DNA of 64,000 bases from an uncultured Chloroflexia bacterium (GCA_963711035.1 CAVQCN010000001.1:1025942-1089941), one strand, 5' to 3'. Counted from the first letter of the stretch, positions 6,077 through 58,265 are shown. Program-made: numbers and translations. The notes: generated from the letters alone by a model not told the origin.

Positions 6077-6424
6077 TCAGGCGCGAGCAAGCACGAGGCC
6101 GATCCCCGCCAGGATGAGCGAGAGGCTCGACTGAGGAACAGTGCCAACACGCTCGGTCAACAAAGAACGGTCGAGCGTGACAATCTGCGAGACGTTGGCC
6201 ACGGAGTCGCGGGGCAGATTGGTAACCTCGGCACTGAGCATGACATTGCCAGGAGCGTTCGCCCAGCCCAGATTGCTGGTTAGAGCAACACAGACGACGG
6301 TTCGGATAGCACTTCGATTGAAAGCATCCCCTTGGACCACGACTACTGGTCTACGGAAGCCTGGTCCCGAACCAGACGGTTCCGGCAGGTCGGCCCAGCA
6401 GATGTCGCCTTGTTCGATCACCAC
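6077..6424 (-). CDS. PemK/MazF-family type II toxin (mRNA interferase)
   Basis: 115 aa MVIEQGDICWADLPEPSGSGPGFRRPVVVVQGDAFNRSAIRTVVCVALTSNL...; classic MazF/PemK N-terminus; overlaps upstream antitoxin by 7 nt. Confidence 0.8.
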   Translation of the reverse strand: MVIEQGDICWADLPEPSGSGPGFRRPVVVVQGDAFNRSAIRTVVCVALTSNLGWANAPGNVMLSAEVTNLPRDSVANVSQIVTLDRSLLTERVGTVPQSSLSLILAGIGLVLARA

Positions 6425-6660
6425 TCAGTTGCGGCCAGCGTTCGTCGCGCCGTTGCCGAGACGAAGCGGTCATCGTTCTCTGAGTCGCCGATCTCTTCGA
6501 GAGCCCTGTTGAGGGCGGCAGTCACCTCGTCCTGCGAATGGCGGGATACATATTCTCGGAGTGCGTCCGCATATACCTCGCTGCGGTGGCGTTTGGAAAG
6601 TCGAACCAGCCGTTCAACCGCGTGGAAGAGATCATCTGGAAGCGAAATCGCGGTTTTCAT
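6418..6660 (-). CDS. Ribbon-helix-helix antitoxin (CopG/MazE-like); start may be upstream at 6732
   Basis: MKTAISLPDDLFHAVERLVRLSKRHRSEVYADALREYVSRH... RHH fold; ATG at 6658-6660; track ORF extends to a TTG at 6732. Confidence 0.65.
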   Translation of the reverse strand: MKTAISLPDDLFHAVERLVRLSKRHRSEVYADALREYVSRHSQDEVTAALNRALEEIGDSENDDRFVSATARRTLAATEW

Positions 6661-6740
6661 ACCCTGAGTATAACTCTGACCATCTCCCATTACGAGAAAG
6701 CGCCTGCTCGTCGCAGCTCCAAGGATACTCAACGGGAGTA

Positions 6741-7591
6741 TTCAATCCGGCGAGGTGACGTGGCCCTTGAGCCCGCCGTCGCCCGTGTTCGGGCGGCTGG
6801 ATCGTGCCGGATGAGGGCGTGGCGATTGGTGGTGGCGCTGATGTCGGCGTCGCTTCGGGCGCCGGCGTGGCCGTTTCGACAGCCTCGGGCGCCGGCGTCG
6901 GAGGTTCGGGCGCTGAGCGCGCGGCGCTGATCGCCTGCAGCAGTCCGTTCAGGGGCACGCTGCCGGTGATCGACCAGATCTCGCCGTACGGCGACGAACC
7001 GGCCGGGATTACCAGCTGCGCTTCGGCGCCGGGCAGGTAGGCGTCCAGCAACGGCTTGCTGATCGCCAGCCAGGGTCCGTCTGGCAGCAGTTCGACGGTC
7101 TCGTTATCGACGATGTGGTAGACGAGGCCGGCCCAGCCGAACTCGTCGCCGGTATCGCTGAACAGGACCAGGTAGCGTTCTCCCACCTGGTAGTGGTTGG
7201 CGGCCAGAGGGCAGGAGCTTATCGTGCCGTGGGCTTCGCTCTCGCGCAGGCGCTGCTCGAGGAGTTGGCGCTGGTAGGCGTCGACCTCGATTTGAGCCGG
7301 CGCGGTGCCGGCGCGTACGAGCACGACGCTCAGCGTTGCGCCGACACCGGTCAGGTCGAAGCCCTCGTACGGATTGATGCCGTTCGGCGGCGTGGCGTCG
7401 ATGGGCGGCTGGCTGTTCTCCGGCCCGCCGACCGCCGTCGCCTCGACGATTGCGATCAGTCCGCGCTGCGGGCGGCTTCGTCGATGGTCGCCGGGCCGGG
7501 GCCGGTACAGGCGAGGGCCGGCGGCGCCGGCGTGTTGACCCTCATCAGGGCAAGCATGGCGAGCAGGAAGGCCACGAAGACCACCAAAAGG
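6741..7591 (-). pseudogene. Secreted Pro/Thr-rich surface protein, interrupted by two 1-nt indels; C-terminus carries PPNTGDGGLK but no TM/basic tail
   Basis: Signal peptide MMKRLLVVFVAFLLAMLALMRVNTPAPPALA|C from ATG 7589-7591 stops after 48 codons. A frame change at a CCC/GGG run near 7470 continues into track ORF 6632..7324. A further shift at a GGG run near 6792 gives ...SSGTIQPPNTGDGGLKGHVTSPD* ending at TGA 6741-6743. Confidence 0.5.
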
Positions 7592-7632
7592 CGCTTCATC
7601 ATATGAAGGAAAACGTCACGTTGACTCCGAAG

Positions 7633-8242
7633 TTAATGCCGGTCAAGGAGCCCGCCGTCGCCCGCGTTCGGAGGAGTGACGGTTGGCCCTTGAACCGGAC
7701 CGCAGTCGGCCAGACATGCACCCGCGTTCGTAGGAAGGGCGGTTGGCACCGCCGGAGGCGTCGCCTCTGTTGTCGGCTTGGCAGTTGGCGCCGGGCCGGC
7801 AGGAGCCGTGGTGGGGCTGGGGCCTGGCGTCGGGCAGGGGCCGGGGTCGCAGGGCGGTACGGGCGCGAAGTTGGTCAGCGTCACGCTGGTGCCGGTCGCG
7901 AGGGTGAACCACTGGTTAAACCACCAACCCTGGCCGCTCTTGAACGTGACGATGGCGCCGTCTTGCGCGCAGGCAGCGGGCTGGCCGGCGAGGCCGAGCT
8001 GCAGAACGACGTCGCTCGTGGCCGTTGAGACGTCCGCGCTGGCGCACTGCTCGCCGTCCGCGAACGCGGTGATGCTGCCGAGGCCTTGGCCCTGCGTTGA
8101 TGCCGTTGTCCGTCATGGTCTGCAGGCTGGCGGCGGGAACGATGACTTCGAACGGAGCTGCCTGCTGGCCCTGTGCCGGCGCCGCCAGCACAAGTGCCAG
8201 CAAGGCCAGTACGCCGGCGAGGCTGCCGATCGCGATGCGCAT
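7633..8242 (-). pseudogene. Second secreted Pro/Thr/Cys-rich protein, frameshifted after the signal peptide; C-terminus ...VTPPNAGDGGLLDRH
   Basis: ATG 8240-8242 (AGGAGG 7 nt upstream) gives signal peptide MRIAIGSLAGVLALLALVLAAPAQG. The frame is lost at a CCC run near 8090; the +1 frame continues ...GQGLGSITAFADGEQCASADV...PCDPGPCPTPGPSPTT... to TAA at 7633 (= track ORF 7633..7884). Confidence 0.5.
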
Positions 8243-14112: not shown

Positions 14113-14370
14113 CTGGTGTCGTCTGTACTGGAACACCTGATATAGATAACACTGAATAAACCTGCAAGGTTTTGTATGGAGCTCGGTTTGTCACCGATCC
14201 GTAACGTTCGCATTGACATTTCGGTGTACGATGTTGCGGTACTACGCCAGGCGGGCAAAAGAAGCGGGCTGACGGGAGTTCTCGCAGCCGAGCGGAGGTA
14301 ACGTAGTATTCGGGAAACGCCTGACCGGCTTCCTCGACCACGACCCCAGGCCCGGCGCTCGGGACTGACG

Positions 14371-15633
14371 GTGAGACAAAGCACCGGCAGGCAGTTTCGA
14401 AGGCCCCTGTTTCACGCAGTCATCATCGCCATAGCGGTGGCCACGGCCTTCTATGCTGCCTTCCTGCCCAGTCGATCCGCATCTCGCGCCGGCGTACTGG
14501 CCGAACAGGTGAACGCCTCCGGCTCTTCGGCGGAGGCGGCGTCTCAATCTCCCCAGTCGCCCACGTCTTCTGACTCCACGCAAACTCAAGGCGAAGTCAC
14601 GGTCCTCACCGCACTCGCACCCGCGGAGAACGTCATCGACCCGCTGCAGGCTGCGAAGCAGCCGTCAGAGTCGAGCGTGCAGATCAACGCGCTCGGGCCT
14701 ACTGATCCCAACGGCGACGCCACGCCCGAGTCGGGAGCGGTGGACGCGGCTCGCAATGGGTTGTGCGAGACGACGGACAGCCTGCTGTACTGCGTCTACG
14801 AAGTCCAGTCGGGCGATACGCTGACGTCGATCGCTAACAAGTTCCAGCTGCAGGGCACGGACGACGTGCCCTCGTGGCAGCTGCTGGTCCAGAGCAACAA
14901 GCCCGACATCGTCAGCGAGGACGACCTGCTGCAGATCGGCCAGAAGCTGCGCATTCCGTTGCAGGCCGGCATTGTGCACACGGTCCTCAGCAGCGAGACG
15001 CTGATCGACATCGCCGACGAGTACGGCGTGACGCCGGAGGACATCGCCGCGGTCGGCGCCAACGGCATCGGCGACGCCGATGCTCTGACCATCGGCCAGG
15101 AGCTCATCATTCCCAACCCAACGCGTCTTGCCGCTCCCGTGACGGCGGTCGACGAAAGTGTCGACGCTGCTGCGGACGCCTCGTCCGATGGCGGGTCTGG
15201 TGGTGGCGATAGCGGTGCGAACGCCGCTGCGGCTGCGGCTGCAGCAGCCGGTCCGAAGTCGGCCGCCGGCTTCATCTGGCCGGCCACCGGTCCGATTTCC
15301 AGCTACTTCGGCCCGTCCCACCCGCTGGGCATCGACATCGACCTCTTCTCCAACCCCAACGAGCCGATCGCGGCAGCGGCGGGTGGCGTCGTGACCTTTG
15401 CGGGTGGCAATACCTGCTGCTCGTACGGCCTCTACGTCACCATCGACCACGGCAATGGCTTCGTGACGCTGTACGCGCACATGTCGGTGCTGTACGTGAG
15501 CACCGGCCAAAGCGTGTCGCAGGGCGAGATCCTGGGCCTCGGTGGCAGCACCGGTTACTCGACCGGCAACCACCTGCACTTTGAGGTCCACGACCACGGC
15601 TCGATCGTCAACCCCCTCAACTACCTGCCCTGA
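14371..15633 (+). CDS. Membrane-anchored LysM-domain M23 family peptidase (cell-wall endopeptidase)
   Basis: N-terminal TM LFHAVIIAIAVATAFYAAFLP, two LysM repeats (YEVQSGDTLTSIANKF...; HTVLSSETLIDIADEYGV...), C-terminal M23 motifs HGNGFVTLYAHM...GNHLHFEV. Confidence 0.85.
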   Translation: MRQSTGRQFRRPLFHAVIIAIAVATAFYAAFLPSRSASRAGVLAEQVNASGSSAEAASQSPQSPTSSDSTQTQGEVTVLTALAPAENVIDPLQAAKQPSESSVQINALGPTDPNGDATPESGAVDAARNGLCETTDSLLYCVYEVQSGDTLTSIANKFQLQGTDDVPSWQLLVQSNKPDIVSEDDLLQIGQKLRIPLQAGIVHTVLSSETLIDIADEYGVTPEDIAAVGANGIGDADALTIGQELIIPNPTRLAAPVTAVDESVDAAADASSDGGSGGGDSGANAAAAAAAAAGPKSAAGFIWPATGPISSYFGPSHPLGIDIDLFSNPNEPIAAAAGGVVTFAGGNTCCSYGLYVTIDHGNGFVTLYAHMSVLYVSTGQSVSQGEILGLGGSTGYSTGNHLHFEVHDHGSIVNPLNYLP

Positions 15634-15803
15634 GCCGAGACAGCGGCAGTTTCCCGAACGCGGTCTCGCACGAGGCCGCGTTTCCCTTTGAAGTTGAAGG
15701 CTTTGTTGTAGGTGGATGTCAGCGCAAACGATGGGTCGCCGGTCGGTATCCGACAGGCTTCTTCGTCAGTCGTCCTTCGCGCAGCTCGCCGCCACGCTAA
15801 TGG

Positions 15804-16430
15804 CTAGCCGCGGAAGGTGAGCAGGGCGACTGTAGTGTCGTTGGGCAGGTTGCTCTTCGTGATGCTGAGGCGGGTCTCGGCGGGCTTTGGCTCGACGCCG
15901 AGCTCTTTAAGGAAGCGGTCGACGCCGTCCAGCTCAGCCGTCGAGTTCTCCGTTTTGTACATCATCGGGATGACGAGCTTGGGCTCGATCATGCTCACCG
16001 TCTCGGCCGCCTTGCTGGCGTCGAGCACGTCGCCGCCGCCCACCGGCAGGATCAGGACCTCGGCCGTGCTGAAGATGGAAGCGTCGTCGGCGTGCGGCGT
16101 CTGGGCGATATCGCCGAGGTGGCAGATGCGTACGTCGTCCATGTCGATGATGTAAGCAATGTTGCGGCCGGTCGGCGCGCCGTGGTCGGTGCGTACGGCC
16201 GTGATCATGACGTTGGCGATGTCGTATTCGCCGGCCCCTTCGAGCACCTTGTAGTCGCCGGTGATGGCCTGCAGATAGTTGTTCTCGGGCTTGTCCTTGC
16301 TGATCGTGATGATGTCGGCGGCTATCTTGCCGATCTTGTAGCCCGTGTTGGGCGCACAGGGGTTGGTGACGAGGGTTGCGTCGCGGCCGCGCAGCCGGAA
16401 GCAGCCGTGACCGAGCCAGTAGATTTCCAT
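15804..16430 (-). CDS. MBL-fold metal-dependent hydrolase (UPF0173 family)
   Basis: Internal ATG 16428-16430 gives MEIYWLGHGCFRLRG...TNPCAPNTGYKI...HLGDIAQ; the upstream 77 codons of the track ORF are Ser/Cys-rich junk. Confidence 0.8.
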   Translation of the reverse strand: MEIYWLGHGCFRLRGRDATLVTNPCAPNTGYKIGKIAADIITISKDKPENNYLQAITGDYKVLEGAGEYDIANVMITAVRTDHGAPTGRNIAYIIDMDDVRICHLGDIAQTPHADDASIFSTAEVLILPVGGGDVLDASKAAETVSMIEPKLVIPMMYKTENSTAELDGVDRFLKELGVEPKPAETRLSITKSNLPNDTTVALLTFRG

Positions 16431-16497
16431 ATACCTGCAGCATAGAGCAGGAACCGTGAACACGGAACAGGGAGCCAGGATCCGGGGCGCGAAGCCC

Positions 16498-18114
16498 CTA
16501 GGACGGCACGAATCGTTGCAGTAGTGGGAGACGGGCGACCAGCATGAATGGCTCGCGGCAGCGCATGAGCAGGGTTGAGGCGAGGTAGACGAGGCCTCCG
16601 GCGCCACCCGCACCGACCAGGATGACGAAGGCCTGTAGCCAGCGCTCCGGGTCCAGGCCAAGGCCGCTTTGTAGCAGGACCCGCATCGCGCCGACGGCTG
16701 CGGCCGTGAGCAGCAGGGCGATGACGAAGCGCAGCAGCGTGTAGCGAAACTCGGGGTCGGCGAGGCCCGGCATGCGGCGAGCGAGCAGGACGACGAGGGT
16801 TGAGAACTCGACGACCGCTGCGAGCGACAGCGCCAGGCCGAGGCCGCGTACCTCCATCGGCCCCACCAGCAGAGCCGCCAGCACGACGTTGACGACCATC
16901 GACCCGATGGCGACGCCGACGGGCGTGCGCGTGTCGCCCTGAGCGTAGAAGCCTCGGCTCAGGATCTCGATGCCGCTATGGGCGAAGAGGCCGATGGCGT
17001 AGAAGCGCAACGCCTGCGCCGTGAGCGTGCTCGATTCGACGTCGAAAGCGCCGTGCTGCAGCAGGACGACGACGAGCGGTCGCGCCAGCAGCAGCAGGCC
17101 GACGCCGATAGGCAGGCTGAGATAGAGGATGAGACGTAGCGCCCGTGACAGCGTGTGGCCGAACTCGGCGTCGTTTCTGGCGGCCTGGTCGGCCAGCGTC
17201 GGGAATGCGGCCGTCGAAATCGCCATACCGACGACGCCCAGCGGCGTCATGACGATGAGCCAGGCGAAGTTCACGGCGGAGATAGCCCCGGATTCGAGCT
17301 TGGAGGCGAAGTACACTGCCACGAAGTAGAAGCTGATCTGGCTCGCCGCCAGACCCAGCACCCGCGGTGCCATCAGTGTGCCGACCTCGCGCACGGCATG
17401 GTCGCGCCAGTTGGCGACGGCGCGGTAGACCATGCCCGCGGCCTTGAGGTCGGGCAGCTGCACCGCCAGGTGGAAGGCGGCGCCGGCCACGACGCCCGCC
17501 GCCAGCACCTTGACGTCCTTCGAGATGAGCGCGGCGACGATGATCGAGAGGTTGTAGAGCATGGGCGCCACGGCCGGCGTGATGAAGTGCCGGCGCGCGT
17601 TGAGGATGCCCATGAACATGCCGCTGACCGAGAACAGGATGGGGGAGAGGAGCATGATGCGCGTCAGCTTGACCGCCAGGTCCTGCAGCTCCGCCTCCTG
17701 GCCGGTGTCTTTGCCGAGTCCTGGCGCCAGCAGCGGCACGATGACGGGCGCCAGCACGAAGGCGACGACGGCGAAGACCAGCGTCGCTGCCAGCACGAGG
17801 TTGATGATCGAGCTGGCGAGGCGCCAGGCTGCCTCTTCGCCGTCACGCACGCGCACGCCGGCGAAGACGGGGATGAAGGCGCTTGCCAGCGTGGCACCCG
17901 CCAGCAGCTGGAAGACGAGGTCGGGCATGCGAAATGCGACCCAGTAGGCGTCCAGTTGGGGGCTGGTGCCGAAGGAGCCGGCGATGATGACGCTGCGCAG
18001 CAGGCCAAGGACGCGGCTGCCCATGAATCCCGCCGCCACGACCAGCGCGGCGATCGCCAGGCTCTGGCTGCGGAGCAGTGAGCGGGACGGCTGCGGGTCT
18101 GTCGCCACCGGCAA
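16498..18114 (-). CDS. murJ: Lipid II flippase MurJ (MviN)
   Basis: 538 aa, ~14 TM, motifs SRVLGLLRSVIIAGSFGTSPQLDAYWVAFRMPDLVFQLLAG. Confidence 0.9.
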   Translation of the reverse strand: MPVATDPQPSRSLLRSQSLAIAALVVAAGFMGSRVLGLLRSVIIAGSFGTSPQLDAYWVAFRMPDLVFQLLAGATLASAFIPVFAGVRVRDGEEAAWRLASSIINLVLAATLVFAVVAFVLAPVIVPLLAPGLGKDTGQEAELQDLAVKLTRIMLLSPILFSVSGMFMGILNARRHFITPAVAPMLYNLSIIVAALISKDVKVLAAGVVAGAAFHLAVQLPDLKAAGMVYRAVANWRDHAVREVGTLMAPRVLGLAASQISFYFVAVYFASKLESGAISAVNFAWLIVMTPLGVVGMAISTAAFPTLADQAARNDAEFGHTLSRALRLILYLSLPIGVGLLLLARPLVVVLLQHGAFDVESSTLTAQALRFYAIGLFAHSGIEILSRGFYAQGDTRTPVGVAIGSMVVNVVLAALLVGPMEVRGLGLALSLAAVVEFSTLVVLLARRMPGLADPEFRYTLLRFVIALLLTAAAVGAMRVLLQSGLGLDPERWLQAFVILVGAGGAGGLVYLASTLLMRCREPFMLVARLPLLQRFVPS

Positions 18115-18199
18115 ATGCTAGCACGCGGCCGACGTTGCTCTGACCGTGGGCCTGGGCTATAGTTCGCCTTTTCCGAGTCGTGATCCTGCGAGGACGGCG

Positions 18200-31373: not shown

Positions 31374-31542
31374 ATTTCGCGGCTCCGCCGCGACGTTTAT
31401 CCATCGTTGTCCAGGCTGGTTGCGGGCGCTTTGCCTGCGGTTTCATTGCTGCTGCTCAGCGGCGGCAGAACGTTGGCCGCGCACGTGCTAGCTTGGTGTG
31501 AGCATCGGTCTCGCTTCGCGGGATCGAGGAGGATATTCCCCC

Positions 31543-32565
31543 ATGCGAAAGCTCTTTGCAGCTGTCGTCGTGTTGGGGGCGGCTCTGGTCGCCCTCGGTC
31601 CGGCGCAGCTCAGCCTGGCGCACTCGCGCCCGGTTCGTTTCGATCCGTCACCCGGCGCCGTGCTCGACGCGGCGCCCTCAACCATTACCGGCTGGTTCAC
31701 CAGCGACATTCGCAGCGACGAGAACTCGTTCATCCAGGTCCTCGACGGCTCCGGCCAACGCGTCGACCAGGGTGACACGCAGCTCAGCACTGACCGGCGC
31801 GAGATGTCGGTCGCGCTGCAGTCAGGCCTCGGTGATGGCGCCTATCTGGTGCACTGGAGCACCCACGACGACGCCGACGGCGAGGTCTTCTCCGGCTGCC
31901 ACTACATCTTTGTGGGGCAGGCGGCGGCAGACGCGGCTGCGTCGAATAGTGTCGCCCTGGACGGCGGCGCCGATTGCCCCGGCACTGTGACTGAGGACAA
32001 TGGCGGCGCTGCTATCGACATCAGCGTCAAGACCAGCGGCACCAGCGCGACCGTGACGATCAACCCAACCGACTTCACGGCGAGGGCGCCCGATGGCACC
32101 TCGGTGGACCCAAACTTCGGCCACTACCACATCTACCTGGACAAGCTACCGCTGGACCAGCTCGAAGGCGGCGACCACCACGACGACTCGGCGATGGCGG
32201 GTATGAGCGATTCGAGTACGCCGGTGGCGGATATGAGCAACTCGGCGGCAACGCCGATGGCCCAGATGGAGGCGCCGAGCGCCGACGCCGCCAACCTGGT
32301 GGAGAACCCGATCATGGCGTTCAGCAACAGCTACACGTTTACCAACCTGCAGCCCGGCGTTCACACGATCGCCGTTGCTTTGAACCACGACAACCACACG
32401 CCGTTTAACCCGCCCGTGATCGCCACGCAGAGCTTCTCCATCAAGGGCTCGACGAGCAGCAGCGGTAGCAATGGCGTGCCCTTGTGGACCTTGTTCGTGA
32501 CCGGTGGTCTGGCCGTCGTGGGCTTGGTCGTCGGCGCGTACGGCTTGACGAAAAAGTCCGCGTAA
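31543..32565 (+). CDS. CopC-domain copper-binding protein with second His/Met-rich domain and C-terminal TM anchor
   Basis: ATG 31543 (GGAGG upstream); signal peptide; CopC fold (AHSRPVRFDPSPGAVL...GAYLVHWSTHDDADGEVFSG); HYHIYLD and MAGMSDS...MSNS...MAQM segment; terminal WTLFVTGGLAVVGLVVGAYGLTKKSA. Confidence 0.8.
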   Translation: MRKLFAAVVVLGAALVALGPAQLSLAHSRPVRFDPSPGAVLDAAPSTITGWFTSDIRSDENSFIQVLDGSGQRVDQGDTQLSTDRREMSVALQSGLGDGAYLVHWSTHDDADGEVFSGCHYIFVGQAAADAAASNSVALDGGADCPGTVTEDNGGAAIDISVKTSGTSATVTINPTDFTARAPDGTSVDPNFGHYHIYLDKLPLDQLEGGDHHDDSAMAGMSDSSTPVADMSNSAATPMAQMEAPSADAANLVENPIMAFSNSYTFTNLQPGVHTIAVALNHDNHTPFNPPVIATQSFSIKGSTSSSGSNGVPLWTLFVTGGLAVVGLVVGAYGLTKKSA

Positions 32566-32580
32566 TCGTGGAGGACTGAC

Positions 32581-34936
32581 GTGAGGATGAGTGGTCGATT
32601 AGCGGCTCTGCTGTTGCTGATAGCGCTGGCGATCGGTGTTTCGATTGGCGGCGGCGATCGCGTGGCGGAGGCGCATGCCCTTCTGGTGCGTGCCGATCCT
32701 CCCGTGAACTCGCAGCTGCGCACGCCGCCGACCGAGCTCACCCTGTACTTCAGCGAGCCCCTGGAGCAGAAGTACAGCACCGTTCGGGTGGTGGACCAGA
32801 ACAACGCGCGCGTCGACGACCACGTGGAGTTCGACGACACCAACAACGCGGTGATGCACGTCTTTCTCAAGGACGTGCAGCCTGGCTACATCACGGTAGA
32901 CTGGGCGACTGTCTCGCTGGTAGACGGTCACCGAGTTACTGGCAGCTACCCACTCACCATCCTCAATCCTGACGGCAGCGTGCCGGCCGGCAAACCACCG
33001 TCGGCCGGCAGCTCCGTCAGTGGCACCAACGCTGACGTGATCCGCGTCATCGCGAAGTGGTTCATCCTGGCCGGCGCTGCCTTCCTCACCGGCGCGATGG
33101 CCTTTGTCGTCTTCATCTCGCCGATCTTCCAGGGCCCGGCTGCCGAGCGTTCCCGGCGGGCGCTGGACCGCGTCGCGCTGATAATCGCCGGTGTGTCGCT
33201 GGTGGTGATGCTGCTGGCGGGGCTCCTCGAGCTACAAAGGCAGGCGCACATCATCGGCGTCAGTATCAGCTCCGTGCTCGATACTCGTTGGGGGCGGCGC
33301 TGGCTGGCACGGCTGGTCGTCACTGGCGTCATCGTCGTGCTGACAGCCAGCCTCGTCGTTACGAAGCCCGGCTCAGCGCGCCGTCTTGTCGGCGGGCTGG
33401 GGTTCATCGGCTGCCTGGGCTTCCTGGGGCTCGTCTCGAGCGTCAGCCACAGCGCGGCAGGCGATGGCGCCTTCTGGGCGGCCGGCGCCGACTTCATTCA
33501 TCTGCTGACGGCGTCGCTGTGGATCGGACTGCTCGCCCTCATGGCCGTCATGTTCATCTACGGCCGGCGTCTGGCGGACGGTGAGCGCTACCAGGTGCTC
33601 GCGGCCGGCCTGCAGCGCTTCTCCGCGATCGCCGTGATCAGCCTGGCGCTGTTGCTGTTCACCGGCACTTTCAACGCCGTGATCGAGGTGGGACAGCTCT
33701 CCGACCTGCTGCACTCCGGCTACGGCTTCACGCTGCTGCTCAAGCTGCTGCTGATCATCCCGTTGCTGGCCGTCGGCATCGTGAACGCGTACATCCTGCG
33801 GCCCGAACTCGTCACGGAGCTGGCGGTGCCGGGCAACCCGCAGGGCCATCGAGAGACGCTGCGCCATCTGGAGGCACGGCTGCGCAACTTGATCCGGGTC
33901 GAGCTGGCGCTGGCGCTGGGTGTGCTGGCGATCGTCGCCGTGCTCGTGCAGCTGACGCCGACCCGAGGACGGCTCGATGTGGGCGGTCAGGCGGGCAAGT
34001 ACATTCAATCGATGGATCAGGATGGCATCTCCGCCACGCTGGTGGTCGACCCGAACCAGCCCGGCATCAATACGTTCGAGGTCGATATCACGGGCGCCGT
34101 CGATACGGTGCAGCAGGTGCGGCTCGACTTCACCCAGCCCGGCACCAACGAGGCGCGCCTCGTCCTCGAGGCTTCCAACTCCAACCCGGCGTATTTCTAC
34201 CTGGGCAAGGGCCCGTACCTGGGTCAGCCTGGCGACTGGCAGATCGGCGTCGACATCCGGCGCAGCGTTGGCAACGACCTGCTCCTGCCGTTCAAAGTAA
34301 CCGTGCCGGCCAGTCCGTCGGCGTCGGCAACCAGCCCGGAGAATGCCTTCGCCTTCCCTGTGTCGCTGACCGTTGGCTCGGCCGCGTTGCTGGCCCTTGC
34401 CGGCGTCCTGGCGCTGGGCTTCGTCTACGCAGGCGTGGCGCGTCCGGGCCGGCCGGGTGGCTACGCCGGCCCGATCGCGATCGGGCTGGCGGGTCATATG
34501 CCTCGCTGGCGTCCCGCGTATTCCCTCGGTGGGCTGATCATCATCGGCGTTGGCCTTGGATCTGCTATTCGGGGCTCATTCGCATTCGGCGTTGTCGAAC
34601 AAGCAGGCGACGGCGGGCAATCCCGTCCCGTCGACGGCTGCGTCGATCCAGCGCGGCGAGACGTTGTTCATGAACAACTGCACGCAGTGTCACGGCCAGG
34701 ACGGTCGCGGCGACGGGCCCCTCGCCAACTCGCTGCCTATCAAGCCCGCCAACCTGTACGACCACGTTCCGTACCACGCGGACCAGTTCTTCTTCAGCCT
34801 CATGACCAACGGCATCGCCGGCTATATGCCGGGGTTCAAGGACACGATCAGCGAGCAGGACCGCTGGAACATCCTCAACTTCCTGCGCAGCAAGTTCGGC
34901 CAGCAGCCGGCCACGTCGCTGGCCGGCTCACCGTGA
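32581..34936 (+). CDS. CopC-CopD fusion (copper resistance/transport) continuing into a class I cytochrome c domain; reading frame broken at a GGGG run near 34571-34574
   Basis: N-terminal CopC (AHALLVRADPPVNSQL...), ~8-TM CopD region; track frame decays into Arg-rich junk after ...IIIGVGLGSAI; adjacent ORF 34550..34936 has CTQCHG (CxxCH) cytochrome c domain but no signal peptide. Confidence 0.75.
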
Positions 34937-34973
34937 TGGCGGGGCGCTCGGGGCCGCGTGCTACGATGCACTC

Positions 34974-35258
34974 GTGAATGACCTGTACGAGCGCGTCGAC
35001 CAGGCGCTGGACGAGATCCGGCCTTACATCCACTCCCATGCCGGCGATGTGAACATCGTCGACGTGACCGACGACGGCGTCGTCAAACTGCAGATGGTGG
35101 GCACCTGCCATGGCTGCCCCATGAGCATGCTGACCCTGCGCCTCGGCATCGAGCGCATCCTCATGGAGAAGGTCGAGGGCGTCAAAGAGGTCGTCTCGCT
35201 ACGCCCAGACGACTTCGATTTGGAAGCGCCGGACGAGGCTGACGCCGCCGGCAGCTGA
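34974..35258 (+). CDS. NifU-like (Nfu) Fe-S cluster scaffold domain protein
   Basis: 94 aa ...IRPYIHSHAGDVNIVDVTDDGVVKLQMVGTCHGCPMSMLTLRLGIERIL. Confidence 0.8.
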   Translation: MNDLYERVDQALDEIRPYIHSHAGDVNIVDVTDDGVVKLQMVGTCHGCPMSMLTLRLGIERILMEKVEGVKEVVSLRPDDFDLEAPDEADAAGS

Positions 35259-52003: not shown

Positions 52004-52577
52004 GTCTGGGTGCTTCACCCCATCGTTGAGCACCGGTGGGCGTGCGGTCAGTCGAGGCGTCGGCCGCGGGCGTAGCGGGGACCTTAAGGTCGCCACGCGC
52101 GCCCCGTCGGGCACGACCCTGACCTCGGCGTTTTGGACGATGGCCTGTGGTTGGACGGGACGCGGCGGCAGCATGAAGGCTGCCGCTACAGATCAGGCAG
52201 CGCCGCGGCCGCTTCCTAAATGCGCGACGTAACGTAAACGCTAGGCGTAAGTTGCATGCTGCGGTGTCAGAGCTGCGTTGATCTGCGCGTTGGCGCGTGT
52301 ATAACGATGGGCAAGTTTGGCGCCAGCGCGTCTCTTCCCACACGTAGGAAACGTTAAAAATGCATAAATATAAGGGGTAACCCTCACGCTGCACGTTGAC
52401 GGCCCTGATATACTCCGTCGTGGCTGTTGGCTAAAGCAGCCGGCCGCAAAGCGGCCCCTTTCTCCTGCGCGCTTACGGGGAGGTGGCGGGCGCGACCGAC
52501 AAGGGACAGTCGGGCGTGTCTCCCAGGCGCCAAGACCGGCTCGGTCGGGTGATCGGCCGGATCACACCCTCGCGGAG

Positions 52578-53866
52578 GTGCAGAACATGCTCAAATCGTC
52601 CTGGAAGTTATTGCCTATAGCGGCGGCGTTCGCATTGGGCATCGCGGTCGTTGGCGCCCGGGGACGTCACGCACGCCTACGGCGTTCGTCGCGCTCGATT
52701 GCCAGCGCCATCGGCGTTCTCACGGTTGACATCGGTCGACGACAGCACAGGCAAGTCGGATCACTGGCGGCCGAGATGCGGTGATCTGACATCGACGCCT
52801 CGAGCCCAACGATGACAGCGGTACGCGAAACTTACACTGCACAATGGCTCAGGTGATGATTCAGAGCTCGATCGAGTCGGATCCAGGACGGCAATTCCGT
52901 TCGCTCGACACGCAGCGGTGCACGGCCAATACGACATCAGCCTCACAGTCTGCCTGACCCGTACGTCGGCTGCGATGTCGTTGACAGCTCGATTCAGCAA
53001 CTGAGCTGGTCGAGCCAGACGGCACTGTCCACCTCACCTGTCAAACGGACAACATCACGATCAAGAAGGACGCGCCCGACGACCCGAGCAAGGACTTCGA
53101 CTTCACGATCAGTGGCCCCGGTAGCGGCTGCGACGACAGCTTCACGCTGGCTGACGGCGACACCCAGTCCTACTCTTGTACGGCGAGTGATTCGACCTAC
53201 GTTGTGACGGAAGACGTTCCCACCGGCTGGTCACTTGACACGCTGACCTGCACGGACACTGGCAACGGCAGCTACGAGACGAATGTCGCCAATGGCAGCG
53301 TTTCCATTACGCTGCAGGACAACACCGACACGGTTTCCTGCACCTTCGTTGACAATCAGGTGACGGGCACCGCGACGCCGGGTACGGCCAACAGCGTTAC
53401 GCTGCAAGTCTCCACCACGACGCCGCCCTGCAACCTGCCCGTCGTCGTCATTGCGACGGTGAGGGACGCTAGTGGCGCCCTGGTCAGTGGCGCACCGGTC
53501 ACGTTCAGCGCGGCCAGCGGTGCGTTCACATCGAGCTCCGGCACCACTCAGGCTGGTGTCGTCTCCACCCTGTACACTGCGAGCGGCAATGGCGCCGCCG
53601 TGATTACGGCGACCTCCGGCTCCAAGAGCGGCACGGCGACGATCACGACGTCGAGCTGCGCAACGCCGGCCCCGACCGCAGTTGCCACGTCGACGCCGGT
53701 TCCGACCGTCTCGACCGGCAGCATCCAGCCGCCGAACACCGGTGACGCTGGTTTGAAGGACGCGGGCAGCGGCAGCTCGAGCCTGTACGGCATCATTGCT
53801 GCTATTGTGGCTATCATGTCGACTGCTGCGGCTGGCTCCATCGTGGTAGCGCGCCGCCGGTCCTAA
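52578..53866 (+). pseudogene. Cell-wall-anchored surface protein (sortase substrate) with PPNTGD sorting signal; N-terminal third disrupted by frameshifts, intact frame from 52985
   Basis: 52578 ORF encodes only a signal peptide (MQNMLKSSWKLLPIAAAFALGIAVVGA) before junk. The frame opening at 52985 has no start codon but reads a coherent repeated module (DFDFTISGPGSGCDDSFTLADGDTQSYSCTAS...VVTEDVPTGWSL...). It ends ...TGSIQPPNTGDAGLKDAGSGSSSLYGIIAAIVAIMSTAAAGSIVVARRRS*. Confidence 0.55.
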
Positions 53867-54035
53867 GTCCAGGGCCTGACAAGGCAAAACTGACGATGAG
53901 CGGCTCCAGCCTAGGCTGGAGCCGCTCATCTTGTACGGCGCCGGGTGTTTGGTTGCCGCCAGGGGGCCGGTTCCGTATTCTGGATGTCAGGCATCTCTCA
54001 GCAGGGCCTAAACCCGTCATAGAGGTCTAGCGTTC

Positions 54036-54818
54036 ATGTTCCAAGATACCGACCCCGAGGAATCCGAAGAGTCCAACGGACTCTTCGGAGGCCGACCTCC
54101 TTTGCCGATCATCGGTGGTGTCATTGCCGCCGTCGTCATCGGTCTCATCCTGGTAGTCGTCGTCTTTAGCAGCGGCGGCGGCAACGACAACAACTCCAAC
54201 GCTCTTGCCACGATCACGCCGACGAGCAAGGCCCAGAGCGGTGGATTGGCGACCGGCGGTATCCCGTCGCCGCAGGGCACCCTTGATTTGACCCGCCCGA
54301 CGGTCACCGGCGCGCCCAGCCTGACCGGCGTCGGCGCCGACGATCGTATCGTCATCCCCGCCTTCAACATCAACGCGCCTCTTACTTTCAAGACGGTGGG
54401 CGCAGACGGCGAGATGCCCAACCCGGACGGACCCGATGACGTTGCCTACTACAACTTCTCGGCCTGGCCCGGTCTGGGCGGTGCTCCCGGCCAGGGCGGC
54501 AACTCCATCTTTGCCGGTCACGTCGACTCGGGTTTCAAGGCCTGCGACCACGGCACGGTCCCGCCGCCTTGCGAGGCTGTCTTCTGGGACGTGAGTAAGC
54601 TGAAGGTTGGCGACACCATCGAGATCCACGTTAGCGGGCAGGTCTACACCTACTCCGTAACCTCGAACCAGGCAGTGGATGCGAACGGCGCCGATTGGAC
54701 TAGCATCGTTTCCGCCACGGCGCAGGAGAGCATCACGCTGATCACCTGTGGTGGCGATTTCAATACCCAGACTCACGAGTACAATCACCGGCAAGTCGTG
54801 ACGGCGGTCAGGGTTTAA
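54036..54818 (+). CDS. Sortase family transpeptidase (class E/F-like), N-terminal TM anchor
   Basis: 260 aa; TM IIGGVIAAVVIGLILVVVVF; ...RIVIPAFNINAPL...NSIFAGHVD...ITLITCGG...HEYNHRQVVTAVRV (His, Cys, Arg catalytic triad contexts). Confidence 0.85.
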   Translation: MFQDTDPEESEESNGLFGGRPPLPIIGGVIAAVVIGLILVVVVFSSGGGNDNNSNALATITPTSKAQSGGLATGGIPSPQGTLDLTRPTVTGAPSLTGVGADDRIVIPAFNINAPLTFKTVGADGEMPNPDGPDDVAYYNFSAWPGLGGAPGQGGNSIFAGHVDSGFKACDHGTVPPPCEAVFWDVSKLKVGDTIEIHVSGQVYTYSVTSNQAVDANGADWTSIVSATAQESITLITCGGDFNTQTHEYNHRQVVTAVRV

Positions 54819-54882
54819 CCTCGTGCCCGCCTCCGGCGTTAGTTAGGATGGTGGCCCGGTCAGAGGCCCAGGGAGGGAACGT

Positions 54883-55755
54883 GTGAATCTGCCGGCATTC
54901 TTGGAAGGTGTTCCGCGGTGGATGCTTCTCGCCGTGATTCCGATTACGGCGTTCGTGGTGGCTGTGGGCGTGAGCTTTGGCATGAGCGGCAGCGACAACT
55001 CGACCACGAGTGGCAGCTTGAAGCCGGACGTCGGCGCGCTGGCGGAGCTGACTACGCCCACGCCTCTTCCGACGGCGACGGTCGTTCCCACCGCTACGGT
55101 GATTCCCGTTCGCACGAGTTGTGATGAGATTGCCGGAACCCCCTACCGCTCCCAGATTGAGCGCCAGTGGTACCTGGACAACTGCACCGACACCGCGGGT
55201 GCCTCCACCGGCGGCGGCGGCACCGGCGGCACCGGCGGAAGCATTGACTACTCGACGCAGGGACCGGTGAACGCCGGCGGCGGCGAGTTCGCGCTCGGTG
55301 ACGAGCTGATCATTCCGTCCATTGGCCTCGATGCGACCGTGTATGGCGACAAGGTCGGCGGCGACGGCACGATGCCGAACCCGGTTGGCTACTTCTACGC
55401 CGTGTGGTACGACTTCAGCGCCTTCCCTGGTCTCGGCGGATACGTCGGCAACGGCAACACGGTTCTTGCCGGCCACGTCGACTGCGCTCGCTGCCACAAC
55501 GGCTCGGCCGGCGCGGCGGTCTTCTGGAACGTCCGCAACCTCTCCCCCGGTGCGAGCATCCAGTACCGGACGTCGGACGGCGTGGTGCACAACTACGTGG
55601 TAACCGCGTCGCAGGACTACACGGACGCTTCGAACTGGGGAGGAATCCTTTCGTCCGGCGCTGCGGACCTGACGCTGATCACGTGTAACGGCGTCTTTGA
55701 TCCGTCTGCGCATGAGTACAACCTGCGCCACGTCGTCTACGCCAAAGCGGTGTAG
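54883..55755 (+). CDS. Sortase family transpeptidase (tandem paralog)
   Basis: 290 aa; TM LLAVIPITAFVVAVGVSF; ...LIIPSIGLDATV...NTVLAGHVD...LTLITCNG...HEYNLRHVVYAKAV. Confidence 0.85.
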   Translation: MNLPAFLEGVPRWMLLAVIPITAFVVAVGVSFGMSGSDNSTTSGSLKPDVGALAELTTPTPLPTATVVPTATVIPVRTSCDEIAGTPYRSQIERQWYLDNCTDTAGASTGGGGTGGTGGSIDYSTQGPVNAGGGEFALGDELIIPSIGLDATVYGDKVGGDGTMPNPVGYFYAVWYDFSAFPGLGGYVGNGNTVLAGHVDCARCHNGSAGAAVFWNVRNLSPGASIQYRTSDGVVHNYVVTASQDYTDASNWGGILSSGAADLTLITCNGVFDPSAHEYNLRHVVYAKAV

Positions 55756-55777
55756 ACGCCTCGAAGTGAATGAGTAA

Positions 55778-55812
55778 CGGCCCGCTCGAGTGAGTGGGCC
55801 GTTTGCGTTGCT
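55778..55812. terminator. Hairpin between convergent sortase and comE-like genes (ggccc...gggcc followed by gtttgcgtt)
   Basis: cggcccgctcgagtgagtgggccgtttgcgtt; plausible bidirectional terminator. Confidence 0.35.
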
Positions 55813-55829
55813 GAAGGTGCTGGCGCTCA

Positions 55830-56391
55830 GCGGTGCGACGAGTTGGCTGCGCAGCGTGCCGGCTGCATCCTGTGGCCGGACGCGTGGAGTCGATTCGCCG
55901 TAGTCCTCGGGGTCGACCTCGAGTACGATCAGGGCCGGGCCACCCGACGAGAGGATGCCGGGCAGCCGCTCACGCAGCACGCCGATGTCGTCGAAGCTCT
56001 CCGACTGGTGATAGCCGGCACCGCGGCCCAGCGCGGCGAAGTCGACCTTGTCGCCGCCGGGCGTGATCTGCTTGCCTGAGGTCTCGTAGACGCGATTGAC
56101 GAGGACGAAATGGTAGTAGTTGGCCGGCTCGGCGCCGGCCACGCTGGCGAGGCCGCCCAGCTGCATGAGCAGGCTGCCATCCCCATCGATGACGTAGATG
56201 CGGCGGTCGGGCTGCGCCAGCGCCAGGCCCAGGCCCAACGACGCGGCGCCGCCCATGCAGCCGATGCAGTCGATGTGGCGCTCGCCGGCGGCGCCGGACT
56301 CTGCCCAGGGCAGGACGGAGCGCATCGTCGTAACGCTGACGCCGTCGCCTTTGGTGGCGGCGATGAGCTCGATTGCCTCGTCACGCTTCAT
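55830..56391 (-). CDS. Sulfopyruvate/phosphonopyruvate decarboxylase beta-subunit-like (TPP-binding C-terminal domain); 3' end uncertain
   Basis: Internal ATG 56389-56391 gives MKRDEAIELIAATKGDGVSVTTMRSVLPW...IDCIGCMGGAASLGLGLALAQPDRRIYVIDGDGSLLMQLGGLASV...; the track frame has no stop until 54808 and runs antisense through the sortase gene. Confidence 0.6.
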
Positions 56392-56404
56392 GCTCTGGTC
56401 CCGT

Positions 56405-56920
56405 CTAGGAGGTTGGCGCGCCGAGCAGCACAATCGTAGGACAGCGCTCCTCCCGGCTCTGGATGAAGGCCTCGCGCAGGAAATGGACGTCCTCTGGACC
56501 GTCGATCAAGTAGCAGGGCACGCCGAGTGTCTGCATAACCGGCGCGATGAGGCGCGTAGCGCTGTTCTGGCGCTCGTCGATGGGCAGATTGACGTCGCGG
56601 CCGAACTGGCCGACGACCATGCAGGTCGGCACGCGCATGTCCATGGCGATGCCGCGCAAGGCGTTCATGCCAGCAAAGACGCCGACGTTCTGGATCATGA
56701 CGAGGGGGTTGGCGCCGCCCATCCAGAGACCGGCGTTGGTGCAGACGGCCTCGTGCTCGGTGCTGAGGGTGACGAGGGTGAAGCGCGGGTCTTCGGTTAC
56801 AGCCTGCAGGAGGGTGCGCTGGTGCGTGTCGGGCACATTGACGATGTGGGTCACACCCAGCGCTACGATCTCGTCGTGCAGCAGAGCGGCCGGTACCGAC
56901 TGGACTACGGGAGTGGTCAT
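56405..56920 (-). CDS. Sulfopyruvate/phosphonopyruvate decarboxylase alpha-subunit-like (TPP enzyme N-terminal domain)
   Basis: Internal ATG gives MTTPVVQSVPAALLHDEIVALGVTHIVNVPDTHQRTLLQAV...CTNAGLWMGGANPLVMIQNVGVFAGMNALRG...; immediately upstream of the beta-like gene. Confidence 0.7.
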   Translation of the reverse strand: MTTPVVQSVPAALLHDEIVALGVTHIVNVPDTHQRTLLQAVTEDPRFTLVTLSTEHEAVCTNAGLWMGGANPLVMIQNVGVFAGMNALRGIAMDMRVPTCMVVGQFGRDVNLPIDERQNSATRLIAPVMQTLGVPCYLIDGPEDVHFLREAFIQSREERCPTIVLLGAPTS

Positions 56921-57008: not shown

Positions 57009-57100
57009 GGAGAGGTGGCAGAGTGGTTGAATGCGGCGGTCTCGAAAACCGTTATACGGGTTCTCTCGTATCCAGGGTTCGAATCCCTGCCTCTCCGCCA
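57009..57100 (+). tRNA. tRNA-Ser (anticodon CGA), type II with long variable arm, CCA encoded
   Basis: GGAGAGG acceptor 5' arm / CCTCTCC 3' arm + G + CCA; D-loop AGTGGTTGAA; anticodon loop CT-CGA-AA; variable stem-loop CGTTATACGGGTTCTCTCGTATC; T-arm CAGGGTTCGAATCCCTG. Confidence 0.9.
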
Positions 57101-57259: not shown

Positions 57260-58265
57260 CTAGGCTTCGGCGAAAAGGACCTGCATCTTCTTCGCAGCGT
57301 CAGCATGGATGGCTGGCGTGACGTGGGAGTAGGTGTCTAGCGTCAGGGTGACTGTGCTGTGGCCGAGCAGCTCCTGGACGATCTTGGGGTTCTCGCCGCG
57401 GGCCAGGTAAAGGGTGGCTGCGGTGTGCCGCAGGTCGTGCACACGAACGCGCGGCAGGCCAGCGCGGCCGAGGATTCGGGTGAGGCAGGGCCCAGGCGAG
57501 CTTCTCTTCGATCTGCTGGCGTCGGTGCTCCCGCAGCGCCTGGGCGGTCCCTTCCGGGAAGTAAACGGTTCTCCGGCTCTTGGTCGTCTTTGGGCCAACG
57601 AAGACGAGGCCGACACCCTTTTGGCGTTGCAGAGCGCGCCGGACAATGAGGCGATTCTGGTCCAAGTCGAACTCGTCCCAGCGTAACCCAGTGGCTTCAC
57701 CAACACGGAGGCCGGTGGAGGCGAGGAGCACCCAGAGGGCATGCAGACGATGATCCTGTGTCGCCGGAAAGAAGCGCCTGACTTCGTCTTCGCTGAGAGT
57801 GTGCATCTCGTTGCGTTCGGGTCGAGGCACGCTCACCGCTTCGGAGGGATTTCGACCGATGGAGCCCCACTGCACCGCTCTCTCGAGAGCTTTGTGCAGA
57901 ACAGTGTGGACTTGGACCACAGAGCGTCGGCTGAGGCCACGTTCGATTAGATCGGCGTATGCTCGTTCGATTGCGGCCGGGGTGAGTGTGCTCAGACGAA
58001 TGCGGCCAATCAACGGCTTCAGGCGCCGAACGTTGAGGTCGTAGGACTCGTAGGTTCGCGGCCGTACGCTGCCTTCTTTAGCCCCGAGAAGTCTTCCGCG
58101 AGCATGAAGGCCACAAGACTGACCCACATGATCCATTCGTCCGGGAAGAACGGCGTCCGGGCTGGGCATCAATCGCTCGGTCGAGCGATAGCCCGTACGC
58201 CGTCCAAGGCTAGATTCGCCTATCCAAACGGCTCTCTTCGAGTGCCGATTGGACGCTTCGCCCAA
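57260..58265 (-). pseudogene. Tyrosine-type integrase, disrupted: N-terminal/core in 57300..58265, catalytic C-terminus in a different frame (57260..57742)
   Basis: Frame A: ...LRWDEFDLDQNRLIVRRALQRQKGVGLVFVGPKTTKSRRTVYFPEGTAQALREHRRQQIEEKLAW then junk; frame B: ...LGRAGLPRVRVHDLRHTAATLYLARGENPKIVQELLGHSTVTLTLDTYSHV...*. About 25-30 aa normally found between these segments are missing. Confidence 0.8.

Follow-up and report, generated by a model that had tools for sequence, protein, structure and literature searches.

The locus considered here raises the question of whether a gene whose product ends in a PPNTG segment, and not in a canonical LPxTG or LAxTG sorting motif, is paired with the two sortase genes that follow it, or whether the segment is only a part of a proline-rich linker. 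The locus lies at 52406-55755 on the forward strand of a 64-kb stretch of DNA from an uncultured Chloroflexia bacterium, which was analysed as a whole and is called the window below. We read the region as an operon for sortase-dependent surface display in a soil bacterium of the Dehalococcoidia (Chloroflexota) that makes peptidoglycan, with a rough probability of 0.8. The reading is carried by the domain content, the conservation of the motif, synteny, the catalytic residues, the sortase fold and the covariation found in a leader RNA. Besides the window, the locus survey took in about 80 related loci of Dehalococcoidia/Chloroflexota (81 sources). A scan of one genome per species gave 435 relatives of the first sortase, and the best 79 of these 435 loci came, apart from one titled Patescibacteria group, all from Chloroflexota metagenome-assembled genomes (MAGs), mostly Dehalococcoidia. 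Hundreds of homologues of this sortase are on record, the named ones being "class F sortase [Dehalococcoidia bacterium]" at NCBI, and an identical protein (P0001) is found on a 1.3-Mb contig and again in run ERR11718636. Three loci (L002, L202 and L203) share the gene order of the window across glnA, the SpaA_4 protein, the two sortases and the TPP enzyme.

The substrate gene was analysed by its in-frame part, for which the following features were obtained from Pfam, AlphaFold, Foldseek and the orthologue alignment:
52985-53866 (+), in-frame C-terminal two thirds of the substrate
about 53054-53353 (+), SpaA_4/CnaB-like domain (PF24514, 48.1 bits against a cutoff of 27.3)
about 53444-53647 (+), Big_1 immunoglobulin (Ig)-like domain (Pfam, 32.5 bits, below the cutoff of 34.9)
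between the Big_1 domain and the sorting signal (+), Pro/Thr linker
53723-53755 (+), IQPPNTGDAGL, with PPNTGD at 53729-53746
53783-53851 (+), transmembrane (TM) helix of 23 residues, LYGIIAAIVAIMSTAAAGSIVVA, after a 9-residue spacer
53852-53863 (+), RRRS tail, followed by the stop codon at 53864-53866

The C-terminus thus reads ...PVPTVSTGSIQPPNTGDAGLKDAGSGSSSLYGIIAAIVAIMSTAAAGSIVVARRRS, and the sorting layout given in a preliminary description of this DNA (IQPPNTGD in the region of 53729-53746, spacer, 23-residue helix and RRRS) was confirmed by direct reading. The layout is tripartite, with the motif starting 44 amino acids (aa) from the C-terminal end, and by sequence it agrees with the (S/P)PXTG definition (PMC4155245) in having PPNTG, a TM helix and RRRS. 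The AlphaFold model of the substrate has two beta-sandwich domains (pLDDT 80-95) plus the terminal helix, and in Foldseek it resembles Ig domains of intimin/invasin as well as an isopeptide adhesin. In the SpaA_4 domain a Lys (in ITIKK), a Glu (in VTEDVPTGW) and an Asn (in FVDN) stand at the positions expected of the triad for a putative isopeptide bond; the three residues recur in 3 of 5 orthologues (P0121-P0123). Of the prealbumin/SdrD-B-like repeats described earlier, the prealbumin-like domain stands as the single SpaA_4, while repeated SdrD-B modules do not, as Pfam finds one SpaA_4 and one Big_1.

Is the PPNTG segment a true signal? The substrate orthologue set comprised the window sequence and five listed homologues, 31-56% identical to it, low-complexity words having filled the candidate list of the homologue search, from which five matches were listed. 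In all six sequences PPxTGDAGL is invariant. Of the 97 open reading frames (ORFs) in the survey that end in a TM helix and a basic tail, 62 show Px[TS]G no more than 32 aa upstream, as against 113 of 3221 (3.5%) in a background window. In the surveyed loci the distance from the start of the motif to the C-terminus is 38-44 aa. Position 1 of the 62 motifs is P in 36, G in 10, L in 8 and A in 7 cases; position 2 is Pro in all 62, position 4 is T (58) or S (4), and Gly follows in all 62. Past the Gly come [DSNT], [GA] and G, and an aliphatic residue (I in 41, V in 11) stands three before position 1. No canonical LPxTG/LAxTG signal with TM helix and basic tail was found elsewhere in the 64-kb window. 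The invariance among orthologues and the motif statistics near sortases therefore bear out PPNTG as a signal in its own right and not a part of the linker. As judged by sequence, a PPxTG-type motif is supported as a conserved, lineage-typical sorting signal, and it adjoins homologous sortases in dozens of Dehalococcoidia/Chloroflexota MAGs. It may be noted that PPxTG would escape the list of motifs employed by a 2025 isopeptide survey (LP.T[GAND], NP.TG, LP.GA, LA.TG, NPQTN and IP.TG).

Directly after the substrate come two tandem, paralogous, membrane-anchored sortases, as had been proposed, and both the family assignment and the catalytic triad agree with this:
54036-54818 (+), sortase 1 (clade A), PF04203 with E 2.6e-16, class F 73.3 bits; membrane anchor, Gly/Thr/Pro linker, catalytic domain
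54883-55755 (+), sortase 2 (clade C), PF04203 with E 2.7e-16, class F 65.3 bits; membrane anchor, Cys-containing segment, Gly-rich linker, catalytic domain

The two are 38% identical, and both ORFs match Pfam PF04203 (peptidase C60) with 59.9 bits against a cutoff of 26.6. In sortase 1 the catalytic residues are His162, Cys238 and Arg252, with a conserved pair Cys170/Cys179; the His/Cys/Arg columns are invariant in 24 aligned homologues, both window sortases included. The AlphaFold model of its catalytic domain has pLDDT mostly above 90, and has the eight-stranded beta-barrel fold of sortases by Foldseek, where 117 PDB matches had E<=0.001 and the 50 listed were all sortases. Classes A, C, D and E are all represented among these, each at E about 1e-8 and with TM-scores of 0.5-0.7; as the four classes match equally well, an assignment of class by structure was dropped. 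The closest solved relative is remote (best E 2e-5 in a PDB profile search). Among the NCBIfam models, class F (NF033748) scores best for both sortases, although the scores fall well short of the 166 bits set as its cutoff. The class E model (NF033747) gives 24.6 bits for sortase 1 and no match for sortase 2, the cutoff being 160, which leaves the analogy to class E made earlier without footing; no class B family matches either sortase at E<=0.1. The model scores point to a class-F-like, sub-threshold clade. In 48 of the 81 sources 2-4 tandem sortase ORFs follow at least one substrate, and by clustering of 165 catalytic domains the order of the paralogues is fixed as A-C, A-B-A or A-A-B-A. Loci of the window type always have clade A first and then clade C.

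From these features the following course of events may be proposed. The exported stalk protein would consist, in order, of a strain-variable N-terminal head, the CnaB-type SpaA_4 domain, the Big_1 Ig-like domain, the Pro/Thr linker and the tripartite signal. The TM helix and basic tail would keep the exported precursor in the membrane, where the active-site Cys of a sortase would cut PPNT|GD between Thr and Gly; the catalytic domains would accordingly be expected to cleave peptides such as GSIQPPNTGDAGLK. The thioacyl intermediate would then be resolved by an amine of lipid II or of the peptidoglycan stem peptide, by which the protein would be fixed to the wall. A LysM-plus-M23 peptidase (+) and the lipid II flippase MurJ (-, E 7e-101) are encoded at 14302-18117 of the window, and their presence implies that the organism makes peptidoglycan, the expected acceptor. 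In this the window lineage is unlike Dehalococcoides, which has no peptidoglycan.

The 5' part of the substrate gene is a different matter, and it is here that the strongest competing explanation arises. The preliminary description placed the start of the substrate at 52985, which is wrong: this is the first codon past an in-frame stop in the frame that was followed (open from 52985 to the stop at 53864-53866), and no start codon occurs in that frame before the GTG at 53204. An ATG is present at 52587, behind a GGAGGTG ribosome-binding site, and the region downstream of it has two parts:
52587-52658 (+), substrate signal peptide MLKSSWKLLPIAAAFALGIAVVGA, matching the orthologue N-termini M..SWKLLPLAA..ALG and out of frame with the remaining gene
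52659-52984 (+), what is left of the variable N-terminal domain, its frame scrambled (either a pseudogene or a consensus artefact)

The orthologues are 315-440 aa long and begin with this signal peptide. In 52659-52984 short peptides colinear with the orthologues are spread over the three reading frames and interrupted by stops, giving at least 6 frame changes and several in-frame stops inside about 330 nucleotides (nt). The periodicity of GC content at third codon positions (GC3) is lost in this part, and is strong and constant in 53000-53860. The span 52587-53866 (1280 nt) is near the orthologue length (417-421 aa). The substrate gene is therefore broken in its 5' third as assembled, and an intact exported protein is not encoded.

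Mapping of mismatches and indels between pairs of loci that are about 99% identical overall (L204 against L205, at 2600-2800; L006 against L204, at 4600-5600; L005 against L206) showed that both concentrate in the N-terminal domain of the substrate, where one 200-nt bin held 24 mismatches and 9 gap positions. The sortase genes of these pairs have zero differences in two pairs and a few in the third. The head domain of the substrate is therefore a strain-level hypervariable diversity hotspot. A diversity-generating retroelement was considered and rejected: there is no template-like repeat within 8 kb and no reverse transcriptase was seen in the loci.

We lean towards the view that the frame damage is a consensus artefact at this strain-variable hotspot of a long-read MAG, and keep as a substantial though lesser possibility that the substrate, and the module with it, is truly decaying, with real indels and stops in the 5' third and with sortases that serve other substrates or decay too. 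Decay would fit the density of frame changes and stops within about 330 nt, the intact state of the flanking glnA and of both sortases, the absence of any protein of the substrate gene from a collection of 5.8 billion proteins, and the frameshifts also present in two further motif-bearing genes of the window (A and B, see below). Yet the length of the gene is kept and its orthologue-like peptides are still colinear, and the remaining 880 nt are fully in frame with strong GC3 bias, which is unexpected under neutral decay. The same part of the gene is also frameshifted in other long-read MAGs (L002, L007, L202/203, L207 and L208), two of them with a split glnA, and it is a strain-level indel hotspot, where the consensus of a mixed population could plausibly fail. 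In the ENA long-read contigs L207 and L208, frameshifts split the substrate gene as well as glnA, which shows that the indel error rate is generally high in some long-read MAGs of this lineage. In the window itself apparent indel damage is found in genes A and B, an integrase gene (two frames) and the TPP-enzyme gene (no stop); the large housekeeping genes examined appear full-length.

A pilus-like system was also weighed, in which one sortase would link substrates head-to-tail via lysine in the style of class C and the other would anchor the fibre to the wall. The arrangement is like that of Gram-positive pilus islands in that genes of substrates with CnaB-type isopeptide domains precede several sortase paralogues whose order is fixed: here the sortases stand in tandem behind a CnaB/SpaA-type protein, 3-4 substrates together with 3-4 sortases are found in related loci, and the top Foldseek matches include pilus class C sortases (E about 1e-8). 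It is unlike these islands in having no pilin motif, VWA tip pilin or pilin Pfam families, and in its hypervariable N-terminal domain. No pilin family of Pfam (FctA, VWA tip etc.) was found in ten substrates of multi-sortase clusters, only Big_1/Invasin_D3; the N-terminal region, where the lysine of a pilin motif is expected, is unconserved among orthologues; classes A, D and E match structurally as well as class C; and the window locus has one substrate only. Polymerisation is therefore improbable, and anchoring of single proteins to the wall by the display operon remains our preferred explanation.

The least ordinary feature tied to the locus is the architecture of other proteins that share the motif but end shortly after it. 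Two such genes are present in the window:
7633-8242 (-), gene A: signal peptide, frameshift near 8105, uncharacterised Cys-containing domain, Pro-rich linker, end VTPPNAGDGGLLDRH-stop, without TM helix
6741-7606 (-), gene B: signal peptide, Pro-rich linker, frameshifts near 7470 and at the motif near 6790, end IQPP/NTGDGGLKGHVTSPD-stop

The motif of gene B is broken by an extra base in the C-run of CCGCCCGAAC. No full TM helix is encoded downstream of either gene in any frame, and neither has a Pfam family. The short-tail set comprises these two, one protein each from the loci L046 (1837-3579) and L209 (4194-5681, P0142), and P0127-P0170; its proteins stop 1-15 residues past IxPPx[TA]G[DS][AG]GL. 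The body of gene A has 154 homologue clusters in a full HMMER search. At least 33 of 150 homologues end in [IVL]xPPx[TAV]G[DSN][AG]GL plus 1-12 residues, without a hydrophobic helix or basic tail, and about 47 have the classical motif, TM helix and basic tail. The short-tail stop is genuine in P0127, whose gene is internal to a 5.8-kb contig; for the L209 and L046 proteins no TM-coding sequence lies downstream in any frame, and the L046 protein is located inside a sortase cluster. For the body of gene B the homologue search found no protein other than itself (P0126). The two proteins at 6741-8242 had been described as truncated: their genes and motif stand, but truncation, for example by insertion of a toxin-antitoxin pair, was dropped for A, as independent homologues have the same TM-less tails, and for B by analogy. 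A PemK/MazF-type toxin gene (E 9e-24) with a weak antitoxin of ribbon-helix-helix (RHH)/VapB type upstream of it is in fact present directly downstream of gene B, at 6077-6732 (-). Because the same tails occur in many independent homologues, the short tail without a TM helix is, on the sequences compared, the natural architecture in the gene A family. That the IxPPxTG[DS][AG]GL segment is not, or not only, a sortase signal but a tag for another protease, for wall binding or for secretion, with its adjacency to sortases reflecting shared surface biology, would suit these verified stops and their conflict with membrane retention, yet it is very unlikely given that the identical extended motif occurs 38-44 aa from the C-terminus, with TM helix and basic tail, directly upstream of sortases in dozens of loci, that its PxTG core is common to proven sortase motifs, and that one short-tail protein lies within a sortase cluster.

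Several points weigh against the display operon and are taken together here. The substrate gene as assembled cannot yield an exported protein, and an exact look-up of its 220-aa ORF found no such protein on record in the collection named above. Both sortases lie far under every curated class cutoff. None of the curated hidden Markov models (HMMs) of sorting signals reaches its cutoff on the substrate tail: TIGR01167 LPXTG_anchor scores 10.2 against 15.9 and PF00746 Gram_pos_anchor 12.3 against 20, position 1 being Pro and not Leu, and the best model, GVDTG_CTERM (NF058571), scores 17.4 against 29. The cleavage site, the acceptor and the pairing of sortase with substrate are all points that we infer. 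In the classical model the hydrophobic tail holds the precursor in the membrane for the sortase, and such retention is at odds with proteins that bear the motif but have no TM helix.

The residues past the cleavage site were compared by type of sortase cluster. They read G[DE][AG]G[LI] in A-C loci; G[TNS]GGY[LIM]GQ[DN], GEGDD, GSGPAG and GQGGSG in A-B-A loci; and GEGSSG, GGGSD and GSGGSE in A-A-B-A loci. As G-[DSN]-[AG]-G-L, these residues are conserved as strongly as the motif itself. Since the prime side is both conserved like the motif and specific to the cluster, recognition probably extends to it. The fixed order of the paralogues, together with these cluster-specific residues, also suggests a probable division of labour, in which one paralogue might, for example, handle the adjacent tripartite substrate and the other the dispersed short-tail PPxTGDGGL proteins such as A and B.

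Expression of the locus may be under RNA control, and two elements precede the substrate gene:
52406-52414 (+), extended -10 element TGATATACT, promoter-like, with a putative promoter function
52415-52592 (+), structured 5' leader RNA of ~165 nt with helices P1, P2, P4 and P5, core ACGGGGAGGTGGCGGG, Shine-Dalgarno (SD) sequence GGAGGTG at 52574-52580 and ATG at 52587

This promoter and leader would drive the gene of the Sec-exported stalk protein. The pattern TGnTA[TA]A[ACT]T is found 167-223 nt upstream of the start codon in 16 of the 16 orthologous loci first examined, and in 7 more later. A generic -35/-10 scan gave nothing at the leader promoter, which fits an extended -10 type. The leader is present in 23 of 23 loci (window, L002, L003, L005-L015, L020, L031 and L202-L208). 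Its covariance model, R1, scores 97 bits in the window and 79-158 bits across the orthologous leaders, and finds nothing else above 16 bits in 867 kb. In the alignment of the 23 leaders 87% of cells pair, a level that none of 500 shuffles reached (77%). Covariation scores 0.374; shuffled alignments gave 0.202, none of the 500 coming up to the real value, and slid partners gave 0.145 at most. Double changes are seen in 4 of 5 pairs of P1, 6 of 7 of P2 and 6 of 7 of P5. P4 folds as a hairpin in all 23, with very different length and sequence, and a purine-rich core ACGGGGA..GTGGCGGG is conserved. A pseudoknot GGGA:UCCC (UYCCC), an inner P3 and an SD-sequestering GCGC:GUGC are pairable in ~86-91% of cells and nearly invariant, and so are candidate helices beyond the reach of covariation. 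The minimum-free-energy fold of the window leader buries the SD sequence (z-score -1.78). Rfam had no match to the leader of the window or of L013 at the gathering score or at E<=10, and a known riboswitch was discarded on this ground. A metagenome scan with the pattern ACGGGGAN{1,4}GTGGCGGGN{0,1}GCG gave at least 80 matching loci, and none of the 80 listed fits model R1. We regard the leader as a well-supported candidate for a new class of cis-regulatory RNA tied to surface-protein expression.

A further element lies between the substrate stop and sortase 1:
53895-53930 (+), GC-rich hairpin of a perfect 16 bp, terminator/attenuator-like

Of 17 orthologous loci, 16 have a comparable hairpin 5-52 nt past the stop codon of the substrate, with free energies (dG) of -21 to -42 kcal/mol and no conservation of sequence. 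This strong hairpin separates the stalk gene from the two membrane-anchored sortase paralogues; it probably acts as a terminator or attenuator setting the substrate-to-sortase ratio, and its position after the substrate stop suggests that the substrate is transcribed above the sortases.

Taken jointly, these features allow a more far-reaching proposal, which we hold tentatively and consider doubtful as a whole. In it the sortase clade reads I-x-P-P-x-T|G-[DS]-[AG]-G-L with the prime half sufficing, the TM-less secreted proteins are true substrates, and the stalk is under an undescribed riboswitch-like leader that sequesters the SD sequence. The short-tail proteins could then be joined to the wall or to the anchored stalk by one of the paralogues, independently of membrane retention.

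How does the system compare with known ones? PPxTG is already experimentally proven as a sortase motif in Clostridioides difficile, where SrtB cleaves SPKTG, PPKTG, SPSTG and SPQTG between T and G, and not LPETG (PMC4155245). The PPKTG protein CD2831 is linked to meso-diaminopimelic acid (mDAP) and is under a cyclic di-GMP (c-di-GMP)-II riboswitch (PMC4591827). The present signal is like those of the SrtB system in that Pro or Ser replaces Leu at position 1, that it is tripartite and that Asp often follows the Gly (SPKTGD in published tails); the substrate is like CD2831 in its CnaB-like domain and in control by an RNA leader, which is predicted here (PMC4155245, PMC4591827). It differs in that C. 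difficile, of another phylum, has one class B sortase that is not next to its substrates, whereas two class-F-like paralogues lie directly downstream here, and in that the window leader is no c-di-GMP riboswitch by Rfam. Ile at -3 and G-[DS]-[AG]-G-L are features of the surveyed Chloroflexota loci, the C. difficile signal set lying outside this comparison. The differences from C. difficile are thus the class-F-like clade, the phylum, the adjacent pair of paralogues and the extended conserved context. The lineage-specific sortase and signal pair proposed at the outset is consequently retained as a conserved, lineage-typical signal; Pro at position 1 is neither strict nor unique, and PPxTG is not without precedent.

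With class F the sortases share their best score, and they are separated from it by the score itself (73 and 65 bits against 166) and by a Cys-x8-Cys loop after the catalytic His of sortase 1 (GxKAC...PPPC), which is absent from sortase 2. The resemblance to SrtE1/SrtE2 of Streptomyces (class E, LAXTG) lies in paired paralogous housekeeping-type sortases, a high-GC monoderm host and a variant motif residue; the varied residue is Ala at position 2 there and Pro at position 1 here, and the class E score is 24.6 bits against 160. To our knowledge, class E genes do not occur in association with one neighbouring substrate gene. The physiological role of class F sortases is unknown (PMC13251363), and the sole characterised member, SrtF of Cutibacterium acnes, recognises LPXTG (PMC8225981). 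Finally, GVDTG_CTERM NF058571, Rumino_NPXTG NF033846 and Microco_LAVTG NF058582 are, like the present signal, lineage-specific LPXTG-like C-terminal domains; all of these NCBIfam models fall under cutoff on IxPPxTGD[AG]GL, and no model for the TM-less form was found in that release.

Some neighbouring features of the window may be mentioned. A transfer RNA (tRNA) gene lies at 57009-57097 (+), and after it comes a tyrosine integrase whose coding sequence is broken into two overlapping frames, 57260-57742 and 57300-58265 (-). At the equivalent place L002 has an intact integrase; the tRNA gene and integrase possibly mark an integration site flanking the sortase locus. The TPP_enzyme_C gene (54808-56433, -) would be expected to end after 187 aa, its length in L002, but lacks a stop there and runs for 541 codons antisense through sortase 2, its stop probably being lost or affected by an indel error. 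At 31492-34974 (+) a CopC-domain protein with a hydrophobic helix and a KK tail, without PxTG, is encoded next to a CopC-CopD fusion; these are a copper-handling pair and not a sortase substrate.

Sortases are known almost wholly from Firmicutes and Actinobacteria, and no papers on sortase signals of Dehalococcoidia or Chloroflexota were found in the searchable literature. For a large soil lineage without cultured members the survey supplies a concrete signal that can be tested. Specificity on the prime side would be relevant to studies of sortase mechanism and to the engineering of sortase ligation. If the TM-less proteins are true substrates, the requirement for membrane retention would not be universal.

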